Part shown: piece after piece, positions 56,370 through 56,783 of the stretch
How positions within the stretch are numbered: position 1 is the first letter of the stretch
How the letters are laid out: every line of letters starts with the position of its first letter
Assembly: GCA_028534125.1 (NCBI GenBank)
Contig: CM052816.1
Span: 16,618,001 to 16,682,000, forward strand
Direction: 5' to 3'
DNA: 64,000 nucleotides
From: Lama glama
Taxonomy: Eukaryota
Notes under the pieces: model-generated
Databases searched by the model: none
Told to the model about the DNA's origin: nothing
The model's input: only the letters and a program-made list of their open reading frames with translations
Made by a program: the position numbers and the translations under genes

Positions 56370-56518
56370 GGAGGAAGTGATGTCACAGGCCCCATGTGAG
56401 CGGATTGCAACACATGCAGCTGCCTGGAGAGAGGGAGCCGGTGTCCTACGTCAGAGCCGCCGCCGCGGAGCCGCCGCCGGGGAGGAGCAGCCGCTGCCGC
56501 CCAGGACTGGGCCCTTCG
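56370..56518 (+). other. ETF1: ETF1 exon 1 (5' leader; 5' end approximate)
   Basis: GC-rich leader ending in donor TCG|gtaagc; intron 56519-56679 ends ctctag|. Confidence 0.75.
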
Positions 56519-56697
56519 GTAAGCTAGCGGGACGGAAAAGCCAGCGACCACCGCGGCGGGCCGCGCGGGGCGGGAAGAGGAGGGACTCTCGGGGGTGGCA
56601 AGGAAGGGGGCCTCTCTGCCCCAGCGGCGGCGCTAACTCTGTGGTCTTGGTGTCTCCGGGCCCCGCCGGGCCGCTCTAGGGAGGAGGAGGCGAGAAG

Positions 56698-56783
56698 ATG
56701 GCGGACGACCCCAGTGCTGCCGACAGGAACGTGGAGATCTGGAAGATCAAGAAGCTCATTAAGAGCTTGGAGGCGGCCCGTGG
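56698..56783 (+). CDS. ETF1: ETF1 (eRF1) first canonical coding segment [29 protein letters not shown]; exon 2 is 56680-56783; gene continues beyond the window
   Basis: Recognisable eRF1 N-terminus; strong Kozak aagATGG; donor GG|gtgagc; no downstream eRF1 exon (NGTSMISL) seen before 64000. Confidence 0.97.

Follow-up and report, generated by a model that had tools for sequence, protein, structure and literature searches.

The 64,000-nt stretch of llama DNA analysed here (the window) carries the start of ETF1, the gene for the release factor eRF1. The peptide encoded from position 56698 onwards is the N-terminus of eRF1: it matched 19 distinct PDB sequences at E ≤ 0.001 (e.g., 1dt9_A, residues 1-29), and all 29 of the 29 residues aligned with 3e1y_A (MADDPS...EAARG) were identical. 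Exons encoding the eRF1_1 domain (PF03463) follow on the same strand of the same contig (C1:16690909-16691094 and 16691452-16691622, +), 8.9 kb past the end of the window. Two features mark the region upstream of ETF1:

33052-45381, + strand: exons of an Hsp70-family gene (Pfam HSP70, E values of 1.5e-23, 3.3e-26 and 2.3e-34 on three exons)
41302-41372, + strand: the C/D-box snoRNA SNORD63 (87.5 bits, gathering score 43), located between Hsp70 exons

The Hsp70-family gene is probably HSPA9 (mortalin), and HSPA9/SNORD63 upstream of ETF1 is, we presume, also the human gene arrangement. Taken together, the matches to eRF1 chains, the eRF1_1 exons downstream on the same strand and the SNORD63/Hsp70 exons upstream bear out the identification of the gene as ETF1. 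Antisense to the Hsp70 gene, a tRNA-Ala (AGC) was called by both Rfam (44.8 bits) and ARAGORN at 44471-44542 (−). When the llama's own genome was searched for a processed ETF1 pseudogene (a fossil cDNA) with leader DNA, exon-3 DNA and PF03463 as queries, none was found; the matches were ETF1 itself and one further locus (C1:70663812-70664198, −) with a 270-aa open frame and a full eRF1_1 domain (165 bits). This locus was rejected as an ETF1 retrocopy: it is intronless and without DNA similarity to the ETF1 leader, and it is probably Pelota (PELO).

The eRF1 start codon is preceded by three upstream AUGs, the third of which concerns us here. The features of the leader and of the first exon-intron boundaries are:

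56378-56380, + strand: TGA closing the eRF1 frame upstream, taken from the list of in-frame codons
56380-56762, + strand: upstream AUG 1 (gaagtgATGt, G at −3), opening an ORF of 73 codons in another frame, which extends past the main AUG to TAA 56760-56762, as read on the spliced mRNA
56394-56399, + strand: upstream AUG 2, followed directly by UGA (start-stop), identical in the human primer 5'eRF1_R
56414-56518, + strand: the former upstream ORF (uORF), now the exon-1 part of a predicted extension, AUG 3 plus 34 codons (MQLPGEREPVSYVRAAAAEPPPGRSSRCRPGLGPS), delimited by the sequence, a human primer and rodent UniRef peptides
56516-56518, + strand: TCG (Ser), last codon of exon 1; TAG in human, the differing base being 56517 (C here, A in human)
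56519-56679, + strand: intron 1 (161 nt, GTAAGC...CTCTAG, with CTAAC at 56633-56637), its junction placed by homology with human cDNA-derived primers
56680-56697, + strand: the 18 nt at the beginning of exon 2, whose six codons (GGGGEK) join the former uORF to the eRF1 start; identical in human primers
56698-56783, + strand: canonical eRF1 start and rest of exon 2, identified by the PDB eRF1 chains

The ATG at 56414-56416 is embedded in a weak context (caacacATGc, with C at both −3 and +4) and opens 35 sense codons up to TCG 56516-56518, which abuts the GTAAGC donor at 56519, exactly as the original prediction had it; base 56517 is also position −2 of this donor. The acceptor reads ...ctctAG/GGAGGAGGAGGCGAGAAG. 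When 56518 was joined to 56680 by script, the spliced frame contained no stop from ATG 56414 through exon 2. The six codons of exon 2 thus lead in frame, with no stop after TCG 56516-56518, into ATG 56698, which has an optimal context (gagaagATGg, with A at −3 and G at +4), and the claim that the frame is open across the intron holds. Consequently, the leader frame is here the ORF of an extension and no longer a separate uORF, as it lacks a stop before the main AUG. One boundary had to be corrected: exon 2 ends at 56783 (GG/gtgagc, with a split Gly codon) and not at 56784, because continued reading gives GGG TGA. Two TAG codons in the same frame lie inside intron 1 (56525-56527 and 56677-56679), which means that unspliced RNA keeps a short uORF, ending two codons past TCG at TAG 56525-56527. 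At the 5′ side, TGA 56378-56380 ensures that no start further upstream can feed the extension.

In human, the corresponding frame ends in a stop codon. Primers listed in the supplement of Shuvalov et al. 2024, a source consulted in part, give the human junction as ...CTGGGCCCTTAG/GGAGGAGGAGGCGAGAAG; primer uORF_F begins with ATGCAGCTGCCTGGAGAGAGG... and equals the window from 56414 base for base, and the reverse complement of uORF_R reads ...CAGGACTGGGCCCTTAG GGAGGAGGAGGCGAGAAG AT, i.e., TAG (PMC11277123). A further primer of this set, uORF-ser_R, converts UAG to UCG and creates a control named uORF-Ser (PMC11277123). At this junction, the published UCG control is, letter for letter, the sequence that occurs naturally in this genome. 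A second and independent set of human primers, contained in the accessible part of another study, agrees: the forward primer for RT-qPCR of ETF1 matches window 56400-56419 exactly, and the reverse primer lies across TTAG/GGAGGAGGAGGCGAGAA (PMC8053119). The human leader as given in the original prediction (CCCTTAG/GGAGG) is therefore correct in both sets. Because levels of ETF1 mRNA were measured in human with this primer pair (PMC8053119), the human mRNA includes at least 14 nt upstream of the AUG, hence the AUG itself, and uses this junction.

For the state in other mammals, the 46-aa in-frame translation of the window was searched against proteins of 25-81 aa, which returned one cluster. It consists of two UniRef100 entries of 35 aa each, one (n = 2) from Cricetidae (...SRYRPGLGP) and one (n = 2) from Rodentia (...SRCRPGLGP). 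Both end directly before the position of the Ser codon, entries of this kind giving the end position and not the identity of the stop codon. With a TAG in human and rodent peptides that end just before the same codon, the TCG of this genome is the derived state, and the suspected loss of a uORF stop is substantiated. The start of the uORF is the same in human and in this genome, its length and end are shared with rodents, and a stop at this codon is common to human and rodents. Genomic copies from other mammals were sought with two patterns: an exact 39-nt uORF pattern had 0 matches in metagenome contigs, and a 23-nt junction pattern in which the variable base was left as N had 0 in metagenome, 0 in prokaryote genome and 0 in viral contigs.

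Apart from the stop, the leader is nearly invariant. Aligned by eye with the human primers contained in the accessible part of PMC11277123, the window (56327-56518 plus 56680-56697) differs in 4 bases (56345, 56350, 56360 and 56517) and one GCC unit over 210 aligned bases. Within the 176 bases of 56361-56518 plus 56680-56697, the only point difference is the one in the stop codon, again beside the one GCC unit. The latter lies in the GCC/GCG run at 56456-56467, which encodes 4 Ala here versus 5 Ala in the human primers and in both rodent peptides, an in-frame difference of one repeat unit. The three upstream AUGs, their contexts and the promoter-proximal sequence are the same in human. That not one of the 34 codons shared with human shows a synonymous difference indicates constraint on the nucleotides and not only on the peptide. 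RNA structure does not account for this conservation: folding of the spliced leaders is no better than that of dinucleotide shuffles (z = +0.95 for the long and +1.54 for the short leader).

An open frame of this length is by itself within chance. At the given composition, the probability of encountering no stop in 40 codons is 0.53, which, multiplied by 1/3 for the frame, amounts to ∼0.18 for each of the three upstream AUGs. The open frame stands out beyond chance because human and rodents have a stop at this very codon in a near-identical leader. Considered post hoc, the chance that one of 4 random substitutions in 210 bases turns the stop into a sense codon is ∼0.05, a figure that is suggestive, but no more.

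Which of the upstream AUGs is encountered first depends on where transcription starts. In the accessible part of PMC11277123, the 5′ end of the human "full-length" leader aligns near window position 56318, and the "short" leader starts at the equivalent of 56404 (primers 16 and 39). The latter is 10 nt before the in-frame AUG. If transcription starts far upstream, AUG 56380 competes first; a start near 56404 would leave very little leader between the cap and the in-frame AUG. Up to the end of exon 1, the ORF from AUG 56380 is identical in the human leader primers (compared by eye), and this ORF would repress eRF1 translation strongly if transcripts with the long leader are common. For the llama, we infer all four of the elements needed: the splice junction, a transcription start upstream of 56414, initiation at 56414 and the extended protein. 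Among the sequencing runs listed, 24 (from 13 studies, under three organism labels, 3 of them recorded as RNA) came up for word matches to window 56000-57000; 23 contain part of it and 7 at least half of the sampled words, shares that are silent on base 56517, on the junction and on the transcription start.

These comparisons suggest the following scenario. The ETF1 leader contains a conserved AUG-initiated uORF in frame with eRF1, which in human is closed by the UAG at the end of exon 1, separated from the main AUG by 18 nt. In this genome, one A-to-C change has converted this stop into TCG (Ser), which would fuse the uORF to the CDS once intron 1 is normally spliced. With initiation at AUG 56414, or at near-cognate codons of the same frame past TGA 56378, ribosomes would then not terminate in the leader and would synthesize an eRF1 of 478 aa. 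Its predicted N-terminal extension of 41 aa (MQLPGEREPVSYVRAAAAEPPPGRSSRCRPGLGPSGGGGEK) would be rich in Pro, Gly, Ala and Arg; it has no hydrophobic stretch and is probably disordered. An extended form should be recognizable by its junction peptide (...PGLGPSGGGGEK), followed by the eRF1 N-terminus as internal sequence. Given the weak context of the upstream AUG (C at −3, C at +4) and the strong one of the main AUG (A at −3, G at +4), most ribosomes should scan past AUG 56414, and the extended form would accompany normal eRF1 as a minor proteoform. The constitutive extended isoform envisaged in the original prediction may exist, but a weak upstream AUG in competition with an optimal main one speaks for no more than a minor product.

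Such an addition need not inactivate the protein, because solved structures of eRF1 contain N-terminal additions as well: PDB chains with 9 to 22 extra N-terminal residues were found, e.g., 5lzt_ii, in which Met is residue 23. The 5lzt entry is, we take it, a ribosome-bound complex. That the upstream AUG can initiate is indicated by the work on the human leader, as far as the accessible part of the paper goes: UCG reporters with the short or the full human leader provided the sense-codon standard for readthrough in HEK293 and HeLa lysates (PMC11277123). As we read the primers, the reporter ATG was changed to ATA in these constructs; the signal of the UCG reporter thus requires initiation at the upstream AUG. 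The native-leader reporters were used at 15 nM and those with the β-globin leader at 1.5 nM (Table S3 of the same partly consulted source, PMC11277123), amounts that would fit poor initiation at the upstream AUG. In addition, the authors ascribe Ribo-seq density in the human isoform-1 leader to uORFs, according to the same part of the paper (PMC11277123).

Loss of the stop would, secondly, remove a termination event from the leader. The effects that termination at the uORF may have in other mammals (lost ribosomes, a possible trigger of NMD and release-factor-dependent readthrough) would be gone here. A stop codon with exon junctions more than 50 nt downstream is the classical configuration for NMD. 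The human UAG fits this configuration, since it closes exon 1 and other exon junctions follow at a distance of more than 50 nt; in this genome, the configuration no longer applies to the frame. On balance, we lean slightly towards the view that the stop loss results in a minor extended eRF1 proteoform and removes one termination event from the leader.

Alternatively, the substitution may be real but functionally silent, a case of neutral drift at a tolerant site, if the upstream AUG is almost unused, be it that transcription starts no earlier than this AUG or that ribosomes pass over it. AUGs very near the cap are poorly recognized. With a transcription start maybe only ∼10 nt upstream, as in the human "short" leader, and the weak AUG context (C at both −3 and +4), initiation at 56414 could be negligible. 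The databases are also compatible with silence: among 175 candidates of 82-2000 aa, 0 annotated proteins carried the extension, and no N-extended eRF1 was present among 1.84 billion representatives, where the 2 hits at E ≤ 0.001 were the hamster peptide and a spurious low-complexity match of 1210 aa. An open frame within chance expectation points the same way. Against this stand the human mRNA, which measurably includes the 14 nt upstream of the AUG (PMC8053119, accessible part), the attribution of leader Ribo-seq density to uORFs and the translation of UCG reporters in lysates (both PMC11277123, accessible part). Moreover, the same usage of the AUG is to be expected from a leader nearly identical to the human one. 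We therefore regard a silent substitution as unlikely, if realistic, and retain the minor extended proteoform as the preferred reading. A more far-reaching version of that reading, in which a stop conserved in human and rodents is lost as a fixed trait of the lineage and the 478-aa eRF1 is produced in every tissue, appears rather doubtful to us.

That the TCG stems from an error in sequencing or assembly, or from an allele private to the animal sequenced, in a species really possessing TAG like other mammals, is highly improbable: despite the fact that the region has a G+C content of 70-73%, which is hard for some platforms, and that the assembly is fragmented (1,072,352 contigs), an error hitting one of just 3 relevant bases has a far lower prior probability than a true substitution among 4 in 210, and the assembly contains a single copy of the exon-1/exon-2 junction region, which reads TCG, with no conflicting contig. 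In the following, the substitution is taken as real and the junction as the human one.

With its end 18 nt ahead of the release factor's own CDS, an in-frame uORF such as this one is an obvious candidate for feedback. In the fullest form of this idea, UAG senses low eRF1 in other mammals and raises eRF1 output by readthrough, and in this genome the feedback is lost and extended eRF1 is constitutive at a physiological level. The idea of such a sensor is not new, and readthrough at the human UAG is already in print, as the accessible part of Shuvalov et al. shows (PMC11277123), which leaves the natural loss of the stop as the new item. Several observations are in favor of a sensor. The in-frame arrangement with its 18-nt spacing is common to human and this genome, length and end of the uORF are shared with rodents, and the leader is almost invariant. 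In lysate, added eRF1 isoform 2 lowered readthrough of the uORF UAG with both leaders (PMC11277123, accessible part). ETF1 mRNA, quantified with the uORF-spanning primers, rose moderately upon degradation of eRF3/eRF1, which the authors attribute to general NMD feedback (PMC8053119, accessible part). Analogous circuits exist for plant eRF1-1 (PMC5397192, accessible part) and bacterial RF2.

Other observations, however, speak against it. In the literature covered, no paper was found in which eRF1 output responds to the eRF1 level via this stop, the effects in the accessible part of PMC11277123 being those of isoform 2, and the accessible parts of PMC9856671 and PMC12784976 contain nothing on the ETF1 leader. 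On a weakly initiated uORF, readthrough in the percent range would contribute little beside the output of an optimal main AUG. UAG-GGA is not known as a leaky context either. Furthermore, the loss of the stop in a healthy, viable lineage argues, if anything, against an indispensable sensor. Loss of a genuine sensor, with extended eRF1 made constitutively at a physiological level, is thus very unlikely in our view. As regards autoregulation of a release factor by a stop in its own message, the candidate stop is absent from this genome.

A species with a natural loss of the stop is a ready-made test of the feedback. If the loss is fixed and extended eRF1 is made in every tissue, the lineage would in effect be a natural knock-in of the published UCG control, in which either termination at the uORF is dispensable for eRF1 homeostasis or the set-point of the termination machinery is altered and an extra eRF1 proteoform is present. 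Without an extended form, the finding would mean no more than that the stop lacks absolute constraint. In the literature covered, no report was found of a natural loss of the ETF1 uORF stop, of an N-extended eRF1 or of the uORF peptide.

The closest known system is the human ETF1 uORF itself, which, according to the accessible part of the paper, has the same AUG, the same sequence but for one GCC unit, the same exon 1/2 junction and the same 18-nt spacer, but whose frame ends with UAG; there, fusion to the downstream frame exists only in a reporter from which the main AUG was removed (PMC11277123). In the llama, the uORF is fused in the genome itself and the main AUG is retained, which leaves two competing starts. 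The regulatory element of plant eRF1-1 is reportedly the stop of the main ORF in combination with an intron in the 3′-UTR. Autoregulation of this gene by readthrough and NMD was described by Nyiko et al. 2017, here consulted in part (PMC5397192). Common to both genes is a release-factor mRNA in which decoding of its own stop could report the level of the factor; unlike in the plant gene, the stop of ETF1 was located in the 5′ leader and is gone, and no sensing is possible at the site. Bacterial prfB, encoding RF2, is autoregulated by +1 frameshifting at an early in-frame stop, the recognition of which competes with recoding. It resembles ETF1 in that the message of the release factor itself contains an in-frame stop near its beginning, but belongs to another domain of life, employs frameshifting instead of readthrough, and its stop is present and essential. 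N-terminally extended proteoforms arising from upstream in-frame starts are said to have been surveyed by Ivanov et al. in 2011. With such products of leaky scanning, the llama ETF1 gene shares an open upstream in-frame start, a weak context facing a strong one and the expectation of two proteoforms per mRNA; the known cases, however, are conserved open frames, whereas the frame described here was opened by the loss of a conserved stop, and its product is a predicted one.
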